This document shows, in pieces, positions 2,391-21,706 of a DNA stretch of 30,010 nt; the stretch's first letter is position 1, and each line of letters opens with the position of its first letter. The position numbers and the translations under genes were made by a program. Origin of the DNA: Solirubrobacteraceae bacterium. GTDB taxonomy: Bacteria; Bacteroidota; Bacteroidia; Flavobacteriales; Weeksellaceae. The notes under the pieces were generated by a model. It worked only from the letters and a program-made list of their open reading frames with translations. It was not told the DNA's origin and searched no databases. Where the stretch lies: assembly GCA_041730375.1 (NCBI GenBank), contig JBGSBU010000001.1, positions 1-30,010 of the forward strand, given 5' to 3'.

Positions 2391-3065
2391 ATGAGTCAAG
2401 GAAATAATTTACTGAGTTCTTCTATTGGAAGAAAAATTACAATGGCACTTTCTGCCTTGTTTTTATTATTGTTTTTAACACAACATTTGTTTATAAATTT
2501 ATTATCTGTTATTAACAAAGATACTTTCAATGAGGTCTCTCATTTTATGGGTTATAATCCGTTGGTACAAAAAGTAATTCAACCCATTTTAATTTTTGGT
2601 ACTCTTTATCATTTTATTTTAGGTTTTATATTAGAAATCACTAACAGAAAAGCAAGAGGGCCACAACAATACGCATACACAAACCCATCTGCAAACAGCA
2701 CTTGGACGTCTAGAAACATGATAATTTCTGGTATTTTAATTTTAATTTTTTTAGCCATTCACATGGTAGATTTTTTCTTTCCAGAAATGAATTATAAATA
2801 CATACAGGTTAATCCACAAGACCCAACCAGGTATTTTCCAGAGCTAGTAAAACATTTTCAAAATCCAATTAGAGTAGCACTTTATGTAGTTGGGTTTATT
2901 TTTCTTGGGTTACATTTAAACCATGGGTTTCAATCGGCATTTCAATCAATGGGTGCAAATAGTAAAAAACATACACCAACCATTAAACTAATTGGTAGTT
3001 TTTATTCTATTCTTGTTCCCATATTATTTACATTCATTACATTATTTCATTTTTTTAACTCTTAA
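2391..3065 (+). CDS. sdhC: Succinate dehydrogenase/fumarate reductase cytochrome b subunit (b558 type)
   Basis: 224 aa polytopic membrane protein starting SSIGRKITMALSALFL, with heme-ligand-type His residues (QHLFIN, YHFILG, IHMVDF, HLNHGF). It lies upstream of sdhA/sdhB. Confidence 0.93.
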   Translation: MSQGNNLLSSSIGRKITMALSALFLLLFLTQHLFINLLSVINKDTFNEVSHFMGYNPLVQKVIQPILIFGTLYHFILGFILEITNRKARGPQQYAYTNPSANSTWTSRNMIISGILILIFLAIHMVDFFFPEMNYKYIQVNPQDPTRYFPELVKHFQNPIRVALYVVGFIFLGLHLNHGFQSAFQSMGANSKKHTPTIKLIGSFYSILVPILFTFITLFHFFNS

Positions 3066-3070
3066 TTAAA
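3051..3070. repeat. Left copy of 20-bp exact direct repeat (attL-like), containing the last sdhC codons and stop
   Basis: TTTTTTAACTCTTAATTAAA, identical to 7429-7448. The flanking bases differ on both sides. Confidence 0.92.
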
Positions 3071-5109
3071 ATTGTAGATAATGCGGTAAGTACTACTAAA
3101 ATAATCGATAAAAATATTATCTTAAGTAAGCTTTAGGATGGTGTTTCTACTGGAGATGTTTTGGAGTGGAATGGAATTTAATGTTTGCCTGTTACTAAGG
3201 TAAAAACCGTAAATGGTGTTAATCCTTCTTCTAACGCAAATGTAGCCGTTGTCGTTTCTAGAGTTGTTACTGGAATTGATTTGTTGATTGGAGCACCTCC
3301 TTATTTTTTAGTACCTAGCGTAATAACAGCCCCTTGGTAGATGGTGATATATATATTGTTAGTGGAGAAGTTTCTCCTAATGAGTTAAAAAATAGAGTAA
3401 CCTATATTTTTGATGATATAAGTGGGTGGAATAAAGTAAATACCGACTTTACACAAAACGATGTTAGGTATTTAAATACCGCTGGAGATAGCGTGCTGGT
3501 GTTTTAAATATGTCTAATAACTTAATTACCGGAGTAGCCACCCCAATAAATAACACAGACGTAGCAAATAAAAAATATATAGATGATTCATTAACAGCCT
3601 CATCTGCCGGATCAATCAATTCTCCAGTTGGATCAATCTTCTTAACTAGCATTCCAGCAAACTCAACTTTTAAAAATGTTGGGTTCGATGTAAATGTAGA
3701 TAACAATACACTTCAGATTGCCTCAACTAAAGCGCAAGTTAAAGATCTTGGAATTACTACATTAAAAATAGCTGATGATGCGGTTGATAAAACTAAAATC
3801 GCACCAAACGTTGCTGGCGATCGGTTAACTCAAGCAATTGATGCCTCTCTACAAATTGATGCCTCAAATATATCTCTAGTTGGCGATGTAACTGGTAAGG
3901 CTTCTAATTCTAAGGTGGTAAAGATTCAAAACATTCCAGTTTCAAGTATTGCTCCAACCAATAACCAAGTGCTAAAATATAATTCTACCACATCAAATTG
4001 GTAAGCGGCCAAGGAAACAACAGAGGTAGTTACTAATTATACAGATAATTTAATTGGAATTAAAAATAAAATTGGAACTTATGTAAACGGGTTAGGCATT
4101 TCCTAGGTTTTAAATGAAAGCGTTACAAAACTTTCAATTTTAAATGGTTGGTTAGTTTATGTAAACGAAAACGAAACAAATGTAAATGTAGTTCTTACCT
4201 CTGCAGATAGTAACAACGCCTTAACAAATGGCTCCAATTGCAACCCTTTTGTTATGCAACCCACTGGAAACGAAACGGTGGTAAATGCTGGCATAAATAT
4301 TAACGTAACTGGCACTGGTACAACGGCTAATCCATACATAATAAACAACGCTTATACAGACCCAGATAACAGTAATGCAAACGAATTGAATACCGGCTTT
4401 ACAAGTGCTTTAAATACCTTAACAATAGCCGATGTGGGCGGAGACAAAACCACATCTATTATTAATTTTAACGCATTAACTTTTGCTTCAAATAAAATAA
4501 CATCAACCATAAACGGAATTGCGGCAGAAATTGCCCCAGTAAGTGGCGTTACTGCTAATAATGAAACTTTAGGGTTTGATTCTACTGGAAATCTGGTTAG
4601 AGGCTCAGCTTGCCATTCAAAACGTACTTACCAAAAACTTAAATAACATTGAGCTAGGGGGTGCAATAAATAAACCAACAATTATTAGTGGTATTACAAA
4701 CACCAATAAATTAAGCTTTACCGCTACTGGGGTAGATGCAATAAATATAAACAGCACAACATTAAGTTTAGATGCCCAAAACAATAGAGTTGGTTTTGGA
4801 ACAGCATCGCCAGGAAACACGGTGGAAATAGTTGGCACAGCAACAAATAGCGGACTTAGGTTGTCTTCCATACCAACAAAAGGTTTATTAGGGACTAATG
4901 CTACCGGCGATATCATATCTAAACCAGCCATATCTAATGAGTTATTTTTTGATGATACTAATTTCTACTATGTTTCTATGAAAATTGAAGCAACCAACTA
5001 TAAAGTGGTTAGGTACAATAAAAACGATGTGAACGACGAAAAAAATGCCAGTGCATCTGGTACACAAACCACCACATTAAGCACTGTTCAATCATTAACC
5101 TATAGTTGA
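3071..5109 (+). pseudogene. 5'-truncated, fragmented gene A for a repeat-rich fibre/adhesin-like protein
   Basis: Coding-like sequence runs from the left repeat to TGA 5107-5109. In-frame stops occur at 3134 (TAG), 3179 (TAA), 4002 (TAA) and 4104 (TAG), and frameshifts near 3318, 3493 and 4602-4615. Motifs include KIVDNAVSTTKI/KIADDAVDKTKI, GDVLEWNG/NQVLKYNS, VKTVNGVNP, LNMSNNLITGVATPINNTDVANKKYID, VTGTGTTANPYIIN, IELGG and RVGFGTASP. The ORF-track pieces 3510-4004, 4254-4646 and 4576-5109 are its fragments. Confidence 0.8.
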
Positions 5110-5117
5110 TTACAAAA

Positions 5118-7238
5118 ATGAAAAGCAGAATATATGCCATCGTAACTTTATTATTGTTATGTTTTAAATTTTTTTATGCAACATTTACTCTTGCAGGAGG
5201 AGTTATAACGCAGTCTGGAACAGATACTTCTTTAAGCGGTTTAAATGGTATTGCCGGTGTGTCTGTACAAACTATAACTGGGGTGTATTCCATTAAGATC
5301 TATACCCTAAGCAATGTTAAACTTAAAGTTACAGGTACATTAACAATGAATAGTACAGAAAAGTTAATATTTACAGCACAGTCTGCTGCTGATAATATAC
5401 TTGAAGCAGATGGTGGAACGTTTAATGTAGGTGAAGCCTATACAAAAAATAGTTTTACCACTCAATTACCTATTGAGGCTATTGTTTGGTCTTTATTTTC
5501 AACCAGAAGCTGGAATACAAGGGTTTGGGTTGTTAGAAATGCAGGAAAAATGATTGCTTATAACGCAGTTTTTAGAATATCACATTCTATTTGGTTTGAG
5601 CAAAACAGCTCAGGTCAAGTGCTTTTAGATGATTGTATTATAGATAAAAGGAGCTCTGCAGGTGACATACAAACAAATCATTAAGATTCGGGTAATAACA
5701 ATACAACCATTAGAAATTCAAGAATATATGCAGACTGTCAGTCGGGTTTAACCTTTAGAAATGCCAATTCACCATTAATAGATAATGTATCTATTTTCCA
5801 AGCCAGAGATGCATGGAATAACGAATCGGGACAGCCAAAAATAATTAGAAGCCTTGTTCCAGACACGGGAACAAATGCCGATGTTTCTCAGTGGGGGAAT
5901 AATACAACAAACGTTATAAATGCAAGGAAAGGAATACAATTTACTTGGGGTGGGTATTTAGAAAATAGCTTCTCAAATACTGGGCAAGTTGGTGTTTGGC
6001 AAGAACTAAATGCTAATTTTAGACCTCCAAACGAAACTGGTGTTAGTCGTGCAGTTTTTTATCTTTCAGATAATCCAGTTGCATCAGATTCTGGTTAAAC
6101 AGCTCTTTCAAATCCCACTACCGGAGGTACTGTTAATACCGCAAATAGATTAACTTATATTGCGACTTCTGTTTCTAATGGAGACATTCCTTTACAAACT
6201 ATTTTAATAGGATCGGGAAGAAGAACAGTTGGAGGATTACAAATTACCGTAGGAAACAGAAACATAATTAGACCAAGAGAAAAAAACACAACAGCAATTT
6301 TTGATGCACTTGAGAATACTTTTGACTATACCATTTGGTCTTACCCTCATTTATCTCAAACCAATCCTATAGTTTTAAAAGCGGGGAACTCTGGCGGTGC
6401 GGTATTTGAACCTGCTATTTTAGCAAACGACTTGAATATAACACTTTCAAAAGTAGCAGCAGCATTAACAGGTATAGCAATAGACCACATTAATAAAACC
6501 ATAACACTAACACAAGAAAGAAGCCTTTGCGATTTATATGACTTTGCGAAAAATAATAAACTTACTAATTTAGAATCACCAAGTATATCAGTTCTTTGTA
6601 CTACTCCTATAGGACAAAACATAGACATAGGTAATTATAAGTTGGTTTTAGCTAGTGGAAGTAAATTAACACCCTGTGTAAAGTATGAAAAGTTAATTAG
6701 TTCGGTGTCTTCAAGTATTAATGATCCAAGCCAAAATTTAGAAGTTGCTTTAACAGACATTAACGGTACATATAAACTAATTAGAATTCAAAATATAAAA
6801 TCAGGTAAAGTAATAATTAAAGATAATAACACAAATACTATTTTAAAACAAGTTAATAATTACACAGGAAACATAAATTTATCTTTTATTAGTAATAGCA
6901 ACAATGTATCTGTATTAGTTGAAAGAATTGGATACACAAACTGGGGAACGAGTGTGGATTTAACCTCGGGTGATGTTTTTAGTTTTGTTGTTGTTCAAAC
7001 AGCAGGCGTAGGAGACCCAGCATCGCTAATTAATCAACAAAGCGAGTTGTATTTAATGAAAAAATTATTAATGAAAGAAGAGGCTATTTATGGCTTTTTA
7101 AACAATCAATCTAATATAACCTTAACCGAAACGTTTTTAAACCAAACAACCGCAACAATTTAAAAACAGCAAGAATTAATAGAATTATTAAAAAAAATAC
7201 TACGAACACACACGTCTAATAGAGAGAAATTAAAGTAA
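5118..7238 (+). pseudogene. Gene B: secreted protein of unknown function, one 707-codon frame with three internal TAA stops
   Basis: ATG 5118 begins a Sec-like signal peptide (MKSRIYAIVTLLLLCFKFFYA). The same frame continues through TAA at 5682, 6096 and 7161 to TAA 7236-7238 with no frameshift. ORF-track pieces 5106-5684 and 6432-7163 share this frame. Confidence 0.8.
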
Positions 7239-7322
7239 ATTTCTAATTTAATTAGAGTAAAAAAAGTAAATACTAAGAAACGCTATTGATGAATATCATA
7301 TAAGATTTATAAGTAGGATAAG

Positions 7323-7330
7323 TATATTTG
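7323..7330 (+). promoter_or_regulatory. Candidate -7 element inside the insert, facing sdhA
   Basis: TATATTTG followed by TA, the same 10-mer (TATATTTGTA) as the sdhC promoter. It ends 127 nt before the sdhA ATG. No clear -33 element. Confidence 0.5.
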
Positions 7331-7428
7331 TAGGCGATTAATAATAACTATAGTATTTTTTTATAAAATCAAAAATAGATTTAATATTAATAGGAAATTT
7401 CAATTTCATTAACATTTTGCTGGTTTTA

Positions 7429-7448
7429 TTTTTTAACTCTTAATTAAA
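7429..7448. repeat. Right copy of 20-bp exact direct repeat (attR-like), 9 nt before the sdhA ATG
   Basis: TTTTTTAACTCTTAATTAAA, identical to 3051-3070. Confidence 0.92.
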
Positions 7449-7457
7449 TCTATACAC

Positions 7458-9470
7458 ATGAGCGTTTTAGATTCCAAAATACCCAAAGGACATATCTCTG
7501 ATAAGTGGGTAAATTATAAAGATCACTTAAACCTAGTAGCGCCAAACAATAGGCCAAAAATAGACATAATTGTTGTGGGCACTGGACTGGCAGGAGCTTC
7601 TGCGGCAGCATCACTGGGGGAAATGGGGTACAATGTAAAAGTATTTTGTTTTCAAGATTCCCCAAGAAGAGCACATTCCATAGCAGCTCAAGGAGGAATT
7701 AATGCGGCAAAAAATTATAAAAATGATGGAGACAGCATTTTTAGATTATTTTATGATACAATAAAAGGAGGAGATTATAGAGCCAGAGAAGCAAATGTGC
7801 ATAGGCTGGCAGAGGTTTCTGGTAATATTATAGACCAATGTGTTGCCCAAGGCGTGCCATTTGCCAGAGAATATGGAGGTTTATTAGATAATCGTTCTTT
7901 TGGAGGAACGCAGGTTCAAAGAACTTTTTATGCAGCGGGTCAAACCGGACAACAGTTATTACTTGGAGCTTATTCCGCTTTGTCTAGACAAATTGGTTTA
8001 GGGCGTGTTAAACTTTACAACAGACACGAAATGCTAGACTTGGTTGTCGTTGATAGAAAAGCAAGAGGAATTATAGCAAGAAATTTAATTACAGGCGAAA
8101 TAGAAAGACACGCCGCACACGCTGTTGTTATAGCGTCTGGTGGGTATGGAAACGTGTATTTTCTTTCTACCAATGCAATGGGAAGCAACGTAACTGCTTC
8201 TTGGAAAATTCATAAAAAAGGGGCTTTTTTTGCCAATCCATGCTACGTACAAATACATCCAACCTGTATTCCCGTTCATGGAACAAATCAATCTAAACTA
8301 ACCTTGATGTCAGAATCCTTAAGAAATTCTGGCAGGATTTGGATTCCAAAGAAAAAAGAAGATGCACAAGCAATAAGAGAAGGCAAGTTAAAGCCAACTC
8401 AACTTTCCGAAGAAGATAGAGATTATTTTTTAGAGCGAAAATATCCAGCATTTGGGAACTTAGTGCCAAGAGATGTGGCTTCTAGAGCAGCAAAAGAAAG
8501 ATGCGACGAAGGGTTTGGAATTGAAGCAAACGACACCAATGAAGGAGTGTATTTAGATTTCTCTTCAGAAGTTATTTCAAAAGGAAAAGAAAAGGCATAT
8601 GCCCTAGGCGATCAAAACCCTAGCGATGAAAAGGTTAAAGACTTAGGAAAAAAATGGTTAGAGGAGAAATATGGCAACTTATTTCAAATGTATCAAAAAA
8701 TTACAGATGAAAATCCATACGAAACCCCAATGAAAATCTACCCAGCAGTGCATTATACAATGGGAGGTGTTTGGGTTGATTACAACCTACAATCTACCAT
8801 AAAAGGCTGTTTTGTTTGTGGTGAGGCTAATTTTTCTGAACATGGAGCAAATAGATTAGGCGCTTCTGCTTTAATGCAAGGGCTAGCCGATGGATATTTT
8901 GTTTTGCCATACACCATTTCAGACTACTTATCTTCTGAAATTAGAACAGGAAAAGTTTCTACAGATTTACCAGAATTTGTTGAAGCAGAAAATAAAGTTA
9001 AAGAGCAAATTAATTTTTTCTTAAACAACAAAGGGTCTCATTCTGTAGATTATTTCCATAAAAAACTAGGTAATATTATGTGGAACAAAGTGGGAATGGG
9101 AAGAAATGAAGAGGGTTTAAAACAAGCGATTGCAGAAATAGATGAATTGAAGAAAGAATTCTATAGCGATGTATATGTACCAGGAGAAGCAAACGAATTT
9201 AATCAAGAATTAGAAAAAGCCATTAGAGTAGCAGACTTTATAGAACTGGGACAATTAATGGCAATTGATGCACTTAATAGAAAAGAAAGTTGTGGTGGGC
9301 ATTTTAGAGAAGAAATGCAAACAGATAAAGGCGAAGCCCTAAGAGATGATGTTAATTTTAAACATGTTGCGGCCTGGGAATATAAAGGCACCGACACCAA
9401 GTTAGCCATCTTACACAAAGAAGAATTAAATTATGAATTCGTTGAATTAAAAGAAAGAAGCTACGAATAA
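7458..9470 (+). CDS. sdhA: Succinate dehydrogenase/fumarate reductase flavoprotein subunit
   Basis: 670 aa with the dinucleotide-binding motif VVGTGLAG, covalent-FAD motif [33 protein letters not shown] and ESCGGHFR. Confidence 0.97.
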
Positions 9471-9521
9471 ACCTATAGCAAATAGTTGAAATTCTAGAGA
9501 ACCATTTTAAAAACTAAAATC

Positions 9522-10295
9522 ATGGCATCAGCAGATAAAAATATAGACCTAACATTAAAGGTTTGGAGACAAAAAAATTCTAAAGAAAAAGGACAATTAG
9601 AAACCTATAAATTAGACAAAGTTTCTAAAGATAGCTCATTTCTTGAGATGTTAGACCAGTTAAACGAACAACTAATAAACGAGAAAAAAGCCCCAGTTTC
9701 TTTTGATCATGATTGTAGAGAGGGTATTTGTGGCATGTGTTCTTTGTATATAAATGGTAGACCGCATGGACCAGACTCTGGAACAACAACTTGTCAATTA
9801 CATATGAGGCATTTTAAAAATAACGAAACTATTTTTATTGAACCATGGCGTTCTGCTGCTTTTCCGGTTGTAAAAGATTTAGTTGTAGATAGAAGTGCTT
9901 TTGATAGAATTCAACAAGCCGGTGGTTTTATATCCATCTCAACTTCTGGTAATACAATTGATGCAAATACTATCCCAATTCCTAAAACTGACGCAGATTC
10001 AGCTTTTAATGCAGCAACCTGTATTGGCTGTGGAGCATGTGTTGCGGCTTGCACAAATGGTTCTGCCATGTTGTTCGTTGGTGCTAAAGTCTCTCAATTT
10101 GCTTTGTTGCCACAAGGTAAAGTTGAGGCTAAAAGAAGGGTTTTAAATATGGTTAAACAAATGGATTTAGAAGGCTTTGGTCATTGTACCAATACTGGTG
10201 CTTGCGAGGCGGAATGCCCTAAAGAAATTTCCCTAGAAAATATAGCTAGAATGAATAGAGAATATCTTTCTGCTACTATTAGTTCTGAGAATTAA
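9522..10295 (+). CDS. sdhB: Succinate dehydrogenase/fumarate reductase iron-sulfur subunit
   Basis: 257 aa with [10 protein letters not shown]...C (2Fe-2S), [11 protein letters not shown] and [12 protein letters not shown] clusters. Confidence 0.97.
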
Positions 10296-10311
10296 GATTT
10301 TTTTCTTAAAT

Positions 10312-10351
10312 AAAAAGGAGGCATGAATTTAAATTCATGCCTCCTTTTTTT
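10312..10351. terminator. Bidirectional intrinsic terminator between sdhB and the convergent desaturase gene
   Basis: AAAAAGGAGGCATGAATTT|AAATTCATGCCTCCTTTTT is a perfect inverted repeat with an A-run before and a 7-T run after, 16 nt downstream of the sdhB stop. Confidence 0.9.
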
Positions 10352-10671
10352 ATGTGGTTTAAAACTAGTTTGTTAAAGAATAACTAAATAAGGTAGTTTT
10401 AATTTTATAATCTAGCGGGGTTTATTTTTTATACTTTTTACTTGTTATAATATAATATTAAACCTATGGAGCGAATGGTTTTCTACTAAACTTAATTTAC
10501 ATTTTTATTGATATAAAAATTAATAAAATAAAAATATAGAATAAGTAAGATAAATTAAAACACACAATTAGCTATTTAAAGAAAAATACATGAGTTATTT
10601 AAAGGTTTAAAAAAAAAATAAGACAAAAGAATAATAATTTTAGTAAAATTTAAAAACAGCTAAATATATAA

Positions 10672-12024
10672 TTATACTTTGTAAGCCACTTGACTATTTT
10701 GAGTATAAAATAAATCTTCTTTCTTTTCTCCGAAAAAAATTATTGAAAAATAAATAGTTACACTAAAAGATATAATTAGGTATATAAATAGTAGAATTAG
10801 AAAATATAAAAAATAATCTGTTGTAATCATCCCTAATAAATTGATTTTATAAATCATAAACATTCCTAAAATAAATTGAGGCAACTCAAAGGCCCAACTC
10901 CATTTATTTCTATCCATAAAAAGTGTTAGTGAGTTAAAACATAATAAAATAAAAATACTTATTAAAACCGGATTAGAAACAAATTCAACTATTGGTTTTA
11001 ATGCAATAATTTCTTTTATGTAAACAAAGAAAAAGTAGTTTAATCCAACCAGAACAGAAAACATTAAAAAATTCCAATACCTTAACTCATTAGAATTATT
11101 TGGCTTATAAAAAAATTCTTCTTTATATAATTTAGGGTTCTTAATAGCCAAAATAGGGTATTTCTCTATTACATCATTAGGTCTCCAGCCTGTTGGCATA
11201 AACCAAATTCTTAATTTATCTAAATAATTATTTGTTCTAAAGGCATCTAATATTAATCTATAAAAATGATGAAGATTTAGAATTAAAGGATTGTACGATC
11301 TACTAGGTCTTGTGTCGCCAACTACAGGGTCAACTCCTTTAATGGAGGCTTGATAGGTGCCAAACATTCTATCCCATATAATTAATAAGGTTCCAAAATT
11401 TTTATCAATGTATTCTGTATTCATTGCATGATGTATCTTATGACTAGTGGGAGTAACAAGAATTTTTTCTAAAAAACCTAATCGACCAATAACCTCGGTG
11501 TGAGTCCAGAATTGTACTGTAGCATGCACAATAAGGATAATATAGTAGTCGGTTAGTGAAAAACCTAAAAAATATATAGGAATTAAAAATAAGGCTCTAA
11601 TAGAGGTTACTGAAATAAAATCGCTTCTTATACCTGTAGCGTAGTTAAATATTTCGCCAGAATGATGTATTCTATGATCATTCCAAAAAATATTAGAGGA
11701 ATGAGCCAATCTATGCCCCCAATAACCACAAAAATCTATAATTATAAATATTAAAACATAATGCCACCAAGCTAATGATTCTGTTTTTAAAAATCCAGAA
11801 CTTTGAAAAAAATCTGGAAAAGCAAGTAAGGTTAAATTAATTCCCACTACAGTTACAACCAAACTCATCATCTTGGAAATAATACTTGAACAAGATTCTT
11901 CAATATAAAACCAAACATCATCAATTTTATCTCTAGAGAAATATGCCTCTATTAGAATTATTAATCCATATATGGGAATAATATAAGCTAGTGAATATGC
12001 GTAAGTAAAATCAATGCCTTTCAT
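10672..12024 (-). CDS. Sterol desaturase / fatty acid hydroxylase superfamily membrane di-iron enzyme (alkylglycerol monooxygenase-like)
   Basis: 450 aa with His boxes HRLAH, HRIHH and HKIHH, the motif DKNFGTLLIIWDRMFGTY, and a hydrophobic C-terminal domain. Confidence 0.85.
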   Translation of the reverse strand: MKGIDFTYAYSLAYIIPIYGLIILIEAYFSRDKIDDVWFYIEESCSSIISKMMSLVVTVVGINLTLLAFPDFFQSSGFLKTESLAWWHYVLIFIIIDFCGYWGHRLAHSSNIFWNDHRIHHSGEIFNYATGIRSDFISVTSIRALFLIPIYFLGFSLTDYYIILIVHATVQFWTHTEVIGRLGFLEKILVTPTSHKIHHAMNTEYIDKNFGTLLIIWDRMFGTYQASIKGVDPVVGDTRPSRSYNPLILNLHHFYRLILDAFRTNNYLDKLRIWFMPTGWRPNDVIEKYPILAIKNPKLYKEEFFYKPNNSNELRYWNFLMFSVLVGLNYFFFVYIKEIIALKPIVEFVSNPVLISIFILLCFNSLTLFMDRNKWSWAFELPQFILGMFMIYKINLLGMITTDYFLYFLILLFIYLIISFSVTIYFSIIFFGEKKEDLFYTQNSQVAYKV

Positions 12025-12331
12025 TTAAAAAATAATTTAAAAATTATACTGTTATTAAAGGTAGTAAAAAAAATTATAATATAGAATGTACAACATACAA
12101 TTTATAATAGTAAAGATTTATTGTGGTTTTTTCTTGAAATGTTTGGTTTTGTTATTTTCGATAGAAAAAAAATCCTAAAATAATTAATAAATATGGCTAT
12201 TTTTTCTGCGTTTTTATTTGAGTATTGTAAACTACAATTGATGTAAAAAAGTAGTCTTTTATTTTTAGTCTTAAATACATTGTATTAAGAACCTAAAGAA
12301 GATAGATAATATTTTTTCTAAGCTTAGAAAA

Positions 12332-13645
12332 CTAACCCTTAAGAAAATTATAAATTTCTGAATTTTCTTTAAATTGTTTGAGTTTTGCCGTAATTCTGTC
12401 GAGTGCAAGGTTATGAATGCTGCCTATGTGCGTTGTTTTAAAATTCTTTTGGGGAGCAAAAGTATTATTTTCAACCTGCAGTCCTATTTCTTTATATGCG
12501 TCTCTGAAGGGAACGCCGCTTTGAATTTTTTGATTTATATTTTCAACCGTATAGATATTATTGTATTTAGGATCATCAATTTTATTTTCCACAACTTCTA
12601 GATTGTTAACCGCATGAATAGTTATTTCTATTACATCTAGAAGTTGTATAATGGGTTCAAAAAGTATTTCTTTTAATATTTGAAAATCTCTATGGTAACC
12701 ACTTGGCAAATTATTTATGGTTAAAATTAATGAATTAGGTAGGGCTTGAATTTTATTGCACTGAGCTCTTATTAATTCAAACACATCTGGATTTTTTTTA
12801 TGAGGCATTATACTAGAGCCTGTGGTAAATTCCTTTGGTAATTTTAAAAAACCAAATTCTTGGCCGTTATAAAGCACCATATCATAAGCAAACTTGCTAA
12901 GTGTACCTGCTAATTGTGCAATGGCAAAAGATAGTGCTTTTTCTGCCTTTCCTCTAAGCATTTGTGCACCAACAGAGCTAATTAAGGTATTGCTAAAATT
13001 TAATTCCTTTGTAGTAAAGTCTCTATCAATAGGGAAACTTGTACCAAAACCTGCAGCAGAGCCTAACGGATTTTGATCGATGGTTTTAAATACGCCTTCT
13101 AACAAGTACAAATCTAAAATAAGTTGTTCGGCATAGGCAGAAAAAAGCAATCCAAAGCTACTTGGCATTGCTGCCTGAAAATGTGTATAGCCTGGTAATA
13201 GGTCTGCTTTATGTTTTTCGGCTTTTTTTATAAAAACATCAAAAAGATCTTCTACTAGTTGTGTTAATTTTTTGCAATAATCTTTGTAGAAAAGTAACAA
13301 GGCGGTTAAAACTTGGTCGTTTCTAGACCGTGCAGTATGTATTTTCTTACCTGCTTCGCCACACTTTATAGTTAAATAATGCTCTATTTTAGAATGTATA
13401 TCTTCGAATTCCTCTTCAATTATAAAATTTCCTTCATTTATTTCTTTCAACAAGTCTGTTAAAGCATTGTTAAGACTTATGCTTTCTTCGGTTGATATTA
13501 AACCAACTTTTGCAAGCATTTTAGATTGAGCCAAATTGCCTAACACATCGTACTTAGCAATGTAGATGTCTAATTCTCTATCTTTTCCAATAGTAAATTT
13601 GTCTATTTTTTCGTTTACTGTATAACCTTTATCCCAGAGTTTCAT
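12332..13645 (-). CDS. argH: Argininosuccinate lyase
   Basis: 437 aa with MKLWDKG, EDIHSKIE, HTARSRNDQV, PGYTHFQ and the fumarase-superfamily signature TGSSIMPHKKNPD. Confidence 0.95.
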   Translation of the reverse strand: MKLWDKGYTVNEKIDKFTIGKDRELDIYIAKYDVLGNLAQSKMLAKVGLISTEESISLNNALTDLLKEINEGNFIIEEEFEDIHSKIEHYLTIKCGEAGKKIHTARSRNDQVLTALLLFYKDYCKKLTQLVEDLFDVFIKKAEKHKADLLPGYTHFQAAMPSSFGLLFSAYAEQLILDLYLLEGVFKTIDQNPLGSAAGFGTSFPIDRDFTTKELNFSNTLISSVGAQMLRGKAEKALSFAIAQLAGTLSKFAYDMVLYNGQEFGFLKLPKEFTTGSSIMPHKKNPDVFELIRAQCNKIQALPNSLILTINNLPSGYHRDFQILKEILFEPIIQLLDVIEITIHAVNNLEVVENKIDDPKYNNIYTVENINQKIQSGVPFRDAYKEIGLQVENNTFAPQKNFKTTHIGSIHNLALDRITAKLKQFKENSEIYNFLKG

Positions 13646-15749: not shown

Positions 15750-15757
15750 TATATTTG
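15750..15757 (+). promoter_or_regulatory. -7 promoter element for gyrB-purA
   Basis: TATATTTG ends 38 nt before the gyrB ATG. Confidence 0.55.
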
Positions 15758-20215: not shown

Positions 20216-20244
20216 GTCAAATTGTCATAAGTTATTTATATTTG
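20216..20244 (+). promoter_or_regulatory. miaB-operon promoter: -7 element TATATTTG (20237-20244) with an upstream GTCA-AATT-GTCA direct repeat (20216-20227)
   Basis: The -7 consensus ends 28 nt before the miaB ATG. The repeat lies just upstream, near the expected -33 region. Confidence 0.5.
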
Positions 20245-20272: not shown

Positions 20273-21706
20273 ATGGAACAAGTTAAATTAACCCCAATTA
20301 TTGAACAAAAATACACAACCAAAACTTTCAATAAAAAAACTAAAAATCTTTTTATTGAAAGTTTTGGTTGTGCAATGAATTTTTCTGATAGCGAGGTGGT
20401 GGCATCTATATTAAAAGAAAAAAATTACGAAATAACTATAAACTCAGACCAAGCAGATTTAATTTTGCTTAACACTTGTTCTATTAGAGAAAAAGCCGAA
20501 CAAACGGTTAGAAATAGGCTTGGGAATTTTAATAACCAAAAAAGACAAAATCCTAAGTTAATAATTGGCATACTTGGTTGTATGGCAGAAAGGATTAAAG
20601 AAAAATTACTTGTAGAAGAAAAAATTGTTAATTTGGTAGTTGGTCCAGATGCTTACAGAGACCTACCTAATTTAATAGAAAACTTAGAAAATACCGGAGA
20701 AAAAGGCGTTAATGTTTTGCTTTCTAGAGACGAAACCTACGGAGAATTATTGCCAGTTAGATTAAATAACAATAAAATTAGTGCTTTTGTTACTATAACC
20801 AGAGGATGCGATAATATGTGTACTTTCTGCGTTGTACCATTTACAAGAGGAAGAGAGCGGAGCAGAGATCCTTACTCTATTTTAAACGAGTGTTTAGATT
20901 TACAGGCAAAGGGATACAAAGAAATAATTTTACTCGGGCAAAATGTAGATTCTTATATATGGTATGGTGGCGGACTCAAAAAAGATTTCAACAAAGCATC
21001 AGACATTCAAAAAGCAACAACCACAGATTTTGCCCTATTAATGGAGATGATTGCAAAAAAAATACCCGCTATTAGAATTAGATTTTCTACCTCAAATCCA
21101 CAAGATATAAAAGACAATGTATTGCACACCATGGCAAAATACCCAAATATTTGCAAAGCTATACATTTACCAGTTCAGTCTGGTAGCAACACGGTGCTTA
21201 AAAGAATGAATAGGCTACATACAAGAGAAGAATACATGGCGTTAATAGACAGAATAAGAAAAATTGTACCAAATTGCGGCATATCACAAGATATGATTGC
21301 TGGCTTTTGTGGTGAAACAGAAGAAGAGCACCAAGAAACCTTATCGTTAATGGATTATGTGAAATATAATTTTGGCTATATGTATGCCTATTCTGAAAGA
21401 CCAGGTACGTTGGCTTATAAAAAAATGAAAGACGATGTGCCTTTAGCCGTTAAAAAAAGAAGACTACAAGAAATAATAGATAAACAACAAGAAAACGCTT
21501 TATTTAGAATGAAAGAATTTCTTGGCAAAGAAGTAGAAGTATTGATTGAAAAAGAATCAAAAAAAAATAAAGACAATTGGTCTGGAAAAAATACACAAAA
21601 CGTAACCGTAGTATTTAATAAAAATGGAAGTAATAAACCGGGCGATTTTGTTAAAGTAAAAATCATAGACTGTACCACGGGTACATTGTTGGGTGTTTCT
21701 ATTTAA
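20273..21706 (+). CDS. miaB: tRNA-2-methylthio-N6-dimethylallyladenosine synthase (radical SAM methylthiotransferase)
   Basis: 477 aa with a UPF0004 domain (FGCAMN, LNTCSIRE, LGCMA), CDNMCTFC, HLPVQSGS, YSERPGT and a C-terminal TRAM domain. Confidence 0.95.
   Translation: MEQVKLTPIIEQKYTTKTFNKKTKNLFIESFGCAMNFSDSEVVASILKEKNYEITINSDQADLILLNTCSIREKAEQTVRNRLGNFNNQKRQNPKLIIGILGCMAERIKEKLLVEEKIVNLVVGPDAYRDLPNLIENLENTGEKGVNVLLSRDETYGELLPVRLNNNKISAFVTITRGCDNMCTFCVVPFTRGRERSRDPYSILNECLDLQAKGYKEIILLGQNVDSYIWYGGGLKKDFNKASDIQKATTTDFALLMEMIAKKIPAIRIRFSTSNPQDIKDNVLHTMAKYPNICKAIHLPVQSGSNTVLKRMNRLHTREEYMALIDRIRKIVPNCGISQDMIAGFCGETEEEHQETLSLMDYVKYNFGYMYAYSERPGTLAYKKMKDDVPLAVKKRRLQEIIDKQQENALFRMKEFLGKEVEVLIEKESKKNKDNWSGKNTQNVTVVFNKNGSNKPGDFVKVKIIDCTTGTLLGVSI

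Follow-up and report, generated by a model that had tools for sequence, protein, structure and literature searches.

In the 30,010-nt stretch of DNA analyzed here (the window, which is the entire contig C1, JBGSBU010000001.1, of its source genome), the sdhC and sdhA genes of a succinate dehydrogenase operon are separated by an insert that lies between two copies of a 20-bp direct repeat and holds two broken genes, termed here gene A and gene B. The source is a metagenome-assembled genome (MAG) of 151 contigs and 1,281,766 bp, with 29% GC, 78% completeness and 3.9% contamination, and every statement on the MAG made below covers this assembled fraction. The features of the locus are the following.

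2391..3065, + strand: sdhC, intact, 224 aa, cytochrome b membrane anchor (open reading frame, ORF; Pfam Sdh_cyt, 3.9e-10)
3051..3070, + strand: left repeat copy, made up of the native sdhC 3' end, its stop codon and 5 nt of spacer
3071..5109, + strand: gene A, pseudogene of a fibre-like repeat protein, with no start codon and no signal peptide
5118..7163, + strand: gene B, pseudogene of a tailspike-like parallel beta-helix protein, 681 codons in a single frame, with a signal peptide
7164..7428, + strand: AT-rich non-coding right end (~25% GC), in which a promoter-like TATATTTG at 7323-7330 faces sdhA
7429..7448, + strand: right repeat copy, ending 9 nt before the sdhA ATG (7458)
7458..9470, + strand: sdhA, intact, 670-aa flavoprotein (Pfam FAD_binding_2, 2.8e-53; Succ_DH_flav_C, 1.4e-37)
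9522..10295, + strand: sdhB, intact, 257-aa iron-sulfur subunit (Pfam Fer2_3, 6.5e-26; Fer4_8)

The 20-mer TTTTTTAACTCTTAATTAAA occurs exactly, on the + strand, at 3051-3070 and 7429-7448, as an earlier sequence-only reading of this DNA had noted, and a search of the window allowing up to two mismatches returned no third match. None of 100 dinucleotide shuffles contained two matches to it, and the two copies are the only ones in the whole MAG. The rarity of the 20-mer had been set beforehand as a test of that reading, and the test was passed, with 11 matches in 596 Gb of prokaryote genomes, each of them single and in unrelated taxa, and one match in IMG/VR. The sequence is not a common AT-rich motif, and its occurring twice at this locus is far beyond chance. 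The left copy codes for F-F-N-S-stop, that is, for the last four sdhC codons and the stop codon. The two copies start 4,378 bp apart, with 4,358 bp lying between them, and recombining them removes, as had been calculated, 4,378 bp and leaves an sdhC-sdhA spacer of 5 + 9 = 14 nt. Identity between the two junctions drops sharply at both edges of the 20-mer, and the possibility of a longer degenerate repeat around it was ruled out, since the 60 nt flanking it on each side are no more similar than shuffles. The rebuilt junction resembles those of relatives, which read ...F-H-F-x-(T/N)-(Q/S)-stop, followed by a short A/T-rich spacer and ATGAG. The 20-bp repeat is the native target sequence, composed of the sdhC end and spacer, and one copy of it stands on each side of the insert.

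The match in IMG/VR falls in a contig of 93,885 bp and 29% GC (L024), where 22 nt at 1921-1942 are identical to positions 3050-3071 of the window, across the left junction, and also end an ORF terminating in ...FFNS-stop. An integrase, a gene B homolog and genes of the insert were all looked for in this phage contig, and none was found. The candidate role of TTTTTTAACTCTTAATTAAA as a phage attachment site (attP) was rejected, as this sole IMG/VR match comes without an integrase or gene B homolog, and the matches to the 20-mer outside the MAG are judged to be due to chance, because L024 lacks an integrase and any homolog of the insert and the 11 genome matches are scattered.

The sdh genes have the composition and order of a Bacteroidota-type sdhCAB operon, with cytochrome b, flavoprotein and iron-sulfur subunits encoded in the order C-A-B by full-length ORFs bearing the corresponding Pfam domains, and the claim that none of their coding sequences is disrupted is upheld. 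The host SdhC is 53-65% identical to that of relatives, in which the N-terminus of SdhA is 77-91% identical. In genomes from the host's family and order, whose SdhC proteins reach at most 63% identity to that of the host, sdhC and sdhA are contiguous at 19 of 19 loci, with spacers of ~10-60 nt, and the same holds for all 37 informative metagenome loci, with spacers of 3-29 nt. The expectation that the two genes are normally contiguous is thus borne out at 56 of 56 comparable loci, all of empty-site architecture and with spacers of 3-60 nt. On this comparison the sdhC-sdhA site is normally empty, and the short-spacer coupling of sdhAB to sdhC that is present at all 56 other loci has been lost here. 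The host itself has a small and AT-rich genome, with an estimated full size of ~1.6 Mb, and its GyrB is at most 82% identical to those of Chryseobacterium, Kaistella and Elizabethkingia. Since GyrB identity tops out at 82%, the host is, by this measure, a new genus-level lineage near Weeksellaceae. The exact host SdhC is not on record, no sequence of the same species or genus was found among genomes and metagenomes, and the closest SdhC in these collections is 62-65% identical.

The DNA between the two repeat copies stands apart from the host genome in composition. Compared with MAG windows of 4.36 kb (n = 389), it lies at a tetranucleotide distance of 0.030 from the host, vs 0.0139 ± 0.0029 for host windows, which makes it the most deviant of them (rank 389 of 389), and its GC content is 33.3%, vs 29.0 ± 1.9%. 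No second copy of any segment of the insert was found within the MAG, no gene B homolog was found in 400 sampled genomes of the host family, no relatives of the insert were found in phage and plasmid collections, and searches with single-sequence patterns recovered none from viral and genome contigs. To judge by its composition and by the absence of gene B from the genomes of the family, the insert is of foreign origin. The same compositional outlier, in a MAG as fragmented and with as much contamination as this one, could be taken for an artefact of assembly or binning, in which DNA from another member of the Bacteroidota was spliced into the contig. Such an artefact would require two misjoins at one unique 20-mer, perfect native junctions on both sides and genes broken multiple times; furthermore, 20 bp lies far below the final k of the usual assemblers, and comparison with the junctions of relatives shows the repeat sequence to be host-like. 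We consider this explanation very improbable.

Both genes of the insert have accumulated lesions. The reading frame of gene A passes through the order 2>1>0>1 by way of three frameshifts (near 3319-3340, 3492-3507 and 4573-4646), is interrupted by four internal stops (TAG at 3134, TAA at 3179, TAA at 4002 and TAG at 4104) and ends at its native stop, TGA at 5107. Gene B contains an in-frame TAA at 5682 and another at 6096, with no frameshift; at the position of one of these stops, 6 of 10 homologs have Q, consistent with a CAA>TAA change, and the other aligns with variable residues. The six in-frame stops inside the two genes are all either TAA or TAG, and gene B has phage homologs, as might be expected if stop codons were recoded in phage-derived genes. 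The lesions are nevertheless not attributable to recoding, given the three frameshifts in gene A and given that TAA is the terminal stop of both sdhC and gene B. Gene A moreover has no start codon, an excess of TAA and TAG is expected under AT-biased mutation, and neither the alignment of the two gene B stops nor the tRNA complement favors recoding: no tRNA or Rfam element was found, and suppressor tRNAs are absent from the window. Among all the explanations considered here, recoding is the least credible. Judged by these lesions, both cargo genes are dead. The longest stretch of the MAG without a 200-codon open frame lies in the insert, which is the only long decayed stretch of the genome, and the remainder of the window consists of intact housekeeping genes (holB-like, purB, dnaG, gyrB, purA and others), so that the lesions reflect real decay and not poor assembly quality. 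The decay is specific to the insert. Taken with its foreign composition and the duplicated target, the insert is a real and inert fossil, the scar of one old horizontal insertion into the sdhC-sdhA spacer.

Almost no decayed DNA is seen elsewhere in the assembled part of the genome. A stretch of 1.1 kb in contig C12 of the MAG (1418-2529) is devoid of any ORF of at least 70 codons and is located amid small genes.

The relatives of the two pseudogenes indicate what kind of locus the insert comes from. Over its first ~500 residues, gene B shares 40-56% identity with proteins from metagenome contigs of podovirus-like and siphovirus-like type, where the homologs sit in structural (head/virion) modules together with genes for terminase, portal, P22-type or HK97-type capsid and SU10 adaptor and begin at the mature N-terminus, without a signal peptide. 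Members of the family are located at 10001-12799 in phage contig L021, 4554-7511 in L023, 10001-12127 in L026 and 10001-12430 in L029, and these contigs represent unrelated phage types (P22/SU10-like podoviruses and HK97-capsid siphoviruses). A bacterial homolog, P0011, comprises 706 aa, is 29% identical to gene B over its full length and has a signal peptide and ordinary chromosomal neighbours. The distribution of the family suggests the exchange of a beta-helix module between phages and their hosts. The AlphaFold (AF2) model of gene B is mostly beta, with a predicted local distance difference test score (pLDDT) of 69; its top Foldseek match is TSP2 of phage CBA120 (6w4q; E 8e-4, template modelling score below 0.2), and its best PDB matches, all of them with weak scores, are phage tailspikes and related parallel beta-helix enzymes. 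The modelled parallel beta-helix of gene B is like that of phage tailspike and depolymerase proteins, such as CBA120 TSP2, the HK620 tailspike and WceF. Unlike these proteins, gene B and its bacterial homologs (P0011 and a Polaribacter protein) are chromosomal and bear signal peptides, and the matches in fold are weak.

Gene A has few and weak database relatives, among them tail-fibre and virion-protein families in PHROG and, in Bacteroidota, surface proteins that bear signal peptides. At its C-terminus it shares 33% identity (E 5e-11) with the C-terminus of the protein that a Polaribacter MAG (L155) encodes directly upstream of its gene B homolog. The upstream gene codes for a signal-peptide protein of 366 aa and the gene B homolog for a protein of 696 aa; both genes are intact and 11 nt apart, and the corresponding spacer between genes A and B in the insert is 8 nt. 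Because Polaribacter carries the same two genes in adjacent positions, A and B constitute a conserved flavobacterial surface-protein pair. The surrounding region of the Polaribacter sp. MAG (5727-12106) is a chromosomal cluster of six or more genes, all in one orientation, for secreted proteins that have signal peptides but no Pfam domains; the A-B-like pair comes last, and the cluster has msrB on one side and a DinB-family gene, ffh and folD on the other.

The left end of the insert does not coincide with the start of this gene pair. The gene A frame emerges directly from the left repeat (L-L-I-K-I-V-D-N-A-V...), its reading frame and its repeat motif extend at least 3 nt (AAA) into that repeat, and the 35 nt from position 3068, which lies inside the repeat, are 74% identical (3068-3102) to a gene A module at 3765-3799. 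Since this stretch resembles an internal module, the insert starts inside gene A, and the 5' end of the gene is missing. On these alignments, the insert is a 5'-truncated piece of an A-B surface-protein locus, together with 265 bp of the non-coding DNA downstream of it.

These 265 bp precede the right repeat copy and are of interest for the expression of sdhAB. The 8-mer TATATTTG, a Bacteroidota -7-type element, is found at 2348-2355, 7323-7330, 15750-15757 and 20237-20244, and in front of sdhC, gyrB and the ORF at 20273 it is consistently placed, 36-46 nt from the ATG; the copy in the insert is 135 nt upstream of sdhA. The window contains six occurrences in total, vs 4.4 in shuffles, and is thus not enriched in the element; no match to the combined pattern TTTG-N17-21-TAnnTTTG was found in the window, scans for sigma-70 promoters and terminators gave results not above shuffles, and no convincing + strand terminator was found between gene B and sdhA. 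Because the whole insert, with all of its genes on the + strand, is co-oriented with sdh, read-through into sdhAB is presumed, and the two genes are presumably expressed by read-through, from the promoter-like TATATTTG in the right end, or by both. Local alignment of 7161-7428 with the region upstream of sdhC yields a score of 40, vs 26 ± 3.4 in shuffles, and a second decayed copy of sdhC was considered at the right end. It was rejected, because ~1% of genome windows match the region upstream of sdhC equally well (the best score being 47, and that of 7161-7428 lying at the 99th percentile), and the similarity is of a generic AT-rich or promoter-like kind.

Pfam and PHROG searches of every frame of the insert found no recombinase, integrase, excisionase or transposase, nor any fragment of one, and the frames at the right end are short and of low complexity. 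Phage hallmarks that would identify a prophage remnant (terminase, portal, capsid and tail genes) are likewise absent from the insert, which holds only the fibre-like and tailspike-like genes of signal-peptide type. The sharply bounded duplication of the target could be the work of a transposase, acting on a non-autonomous transposon or similar element with an unusually long target-site duplication, as in IS1634-type elements. The insert, however, has no terminal inverted repeats at its ends, no transposase and no second copy, and one of its ends lies inside a gene, which leaves little room for a transposon or insertion sequence; this origin is assigned a very low probability.

The sequence-only reading had taken the insert for the remnant of an integrative element that uses the sdhC 3' end as its bacterial attachment site (attB), and had proposed that excision in trans might act as a switch on the respiratory complex. 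The first of these proposals stands insofar as the insert is a foreign insertion with an exact duplication of its target; the part that calls for an integrase or excisionase in the insert finds nothing to match it. Since none of the 56 other junctions is occupied, there is no evidence for the sdhC 3' end as a recurrent attB; none of these loci has a longer version carrying an integrase next to this core, and a search of the literature for sdhC as attB found nothing relevant. Excision in trans would make of the insert a still-mobilisable element akin to the cis-mobilisable elements (CIMEs), toggling the coupling of sdhC to sdhAB. Both exact copies of the repeat do persist, but the only tyrosine recombinases in the MAG are XerC and XerD, no serine recombinase was found in it, the core does not occur there a third time, the insert lacks a left arm and carries dead cargo, and searches for related elements found none. 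It is hence most unlikely that the insert remains mobilisable in this way, the proposed switch has no support, and the broader proposition that the sdhC 3' end and spacer serve an undescribed family of Flavobacteriales elements as attB, with the remnant excisable in trans and the uncoupling of sdhC from sdhAB reversible, deserves equally little credence.

Two routes by which the insert may have arrived fit the data, namely site-specific integration followed by deletion, and capture without an integrase. We infer, tentatively and at somewhat less than an even chance, the first of them, which is rated the likelier. Tyrosine-integrase elements are classically recognised by a repeat that reconstitutes the 3' end of the gene they enter, and the exact, sharply bounded repeat that restores the sdhC 3' end, a signature with a high prior, favors the integrase route. 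The 265 bp of AT-rich non-coding DNA before the right repeat are also suggestive, being placed as an attP arm would be. Under this route, a larger integrative element would have recombined site-specifically at a core of at least 20 bp, restoring the sdhC 3' end. A later deletion would then have taken the recombinase side of the element and the 5' part of gene A, with its left endpoint at or inside the left copy of the core, leaving two genes for secreted proteins, one fibre-like and the other tailspike-like, and, next to the right repeat, a non-coding arm. Functionless in the host, both genes would have gathered frameshifts and nonsense mutations, with sdhC, sdhA and sdhB kept intact.

Several findings weigh against integration and deletion. 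Of the features expected of an integrative element, target-sequence direct repeats are present at both ends, and a recombinase gene or fragment and repeated use of the attB are lacking. There is no arm on the left side, where the interior of gene A abuts the repeat, and the right non-coding end is not enriched in arm-type repeats, repeated 8-9-mers being not above shuffles. The left repeat directly adjoins inner sequence of a truncated ORF, the frame of which continues into the repeat (K-I-V-D-N-A-V), so that the deletion would have to have ended there by coincidence. Furthermore, no sister elements of the insert were found, no occupied sdhC-sdhA junction was seen in other genomes and metagenomes (0/56), and neither IMG/VR nor the genome collection contains an attP-like copy of the 20-mer with the flanks of the insert. 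Lastly, the two known intact A-B or B loci are ordinary chromosomal ones and do not lie on mobile elements.

The second route, which we hold to be a substantial possibility of somewhat lower probability than the first, is an illegitimate insertion in which a 4.36-kb fragment of the surface-protein locus of another flavobacterium was captured at the sdhC-sdhA spacer, by microhomology-mediated template switching or by repair of a staggered break. A nascent strand would exit after ...TTAAA, copy foreign DNA and re-enter the T-run 20 nt upstream, and the target would thereby be duplicated. The insert does resemble a random fragment, starting as it does within gene A, which lacks a start codon and also the signal peptide that all relatives of the gene have, and the running of its frame and internal repeat motif into the AAA of the left repeat is of a piece with this. 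The right repeat opens with a T-run beside the T-rich end of the insert, making microhomology possible at both junctions; the intact Polaribacter pair and P0011 are ordinary chromosomal genes amid housekeeping genes; and the lack of mobility genes and of any other occupied junction speaks for a unique event. On the other hand, a 20-bp target duplication is unusual for bacterial illegitimate recombination, Ku, the protein of non-homologous end joining, was not found in the MAG (78% complete), a fragment taken at random would a priori be unlikely to end in a non-coding tract of 265 bp, and the landing was so neat that three genes were spared.

Each of these routes has counterparts among known systems. 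Bacteroides elements of the NBU1/NBU2 type have identity segments of 13-14 bp. Degenerate islets flanked by attachment sites (att) at gene 3' ends are like the insert in their short target-sequence repeat, restored 3' end, foreign composition and accessory cargo; unlike NBU-type islets, the insert targets a protein-coding respiratory gene and operon spacer instead of a tRNA gene, lacks integrase and mobilisation genes, has a truncated ORF flush with the repeat and is without sister elements. CIMEs arise from the decay or accretion of integrative and conjugative elements (ICEs), as in ICESt1/CIME of Streptococcus thermophilus, and share with the insert att-like repeats around DNA without recombination genes. 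What defines them, however, is a cognate ICE that shares their att site, and here neither a cognate element nor an integrase for that site was found, XerC and XerD being the only tyrosine recombinases in the MAG. In the natural transformation of Acinetobacter baylyi, foreign DNA is integrated by homology-facilitated and by double illegitimate recombination. Illegitimate integration and template switching are comparable to the present case in the arbitrary foreign fragment, the possible microhomology of A/T runs and the lack of mobility genes; such events usually delete or replace recipient DNA, unlike the clean 20-bp duplication without loss observed here. The scar that horizontal transfer has left here is well preserved and unusually located but otherwise ordinary, and it does not amount to a new kind of system.

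A respiratory operon that is tightly coupled at 56 other loci has here long tolerated a dead wedge of 4.4 kb, and the case therefore bears on how sdhAB can be transcribed and translated when uncoupled from sdhC in Bacteroidota. Should the integrase-independent route be the true one, the locus would document a bacterium without Ku capturing foreign chromosomal DNA and duplicating a long target in the process. The cargo, in turn, reveals a gene family common to phage structural modules, where it lacks a signal peptide, and to flavobacterial chromosomes, where it bears one.

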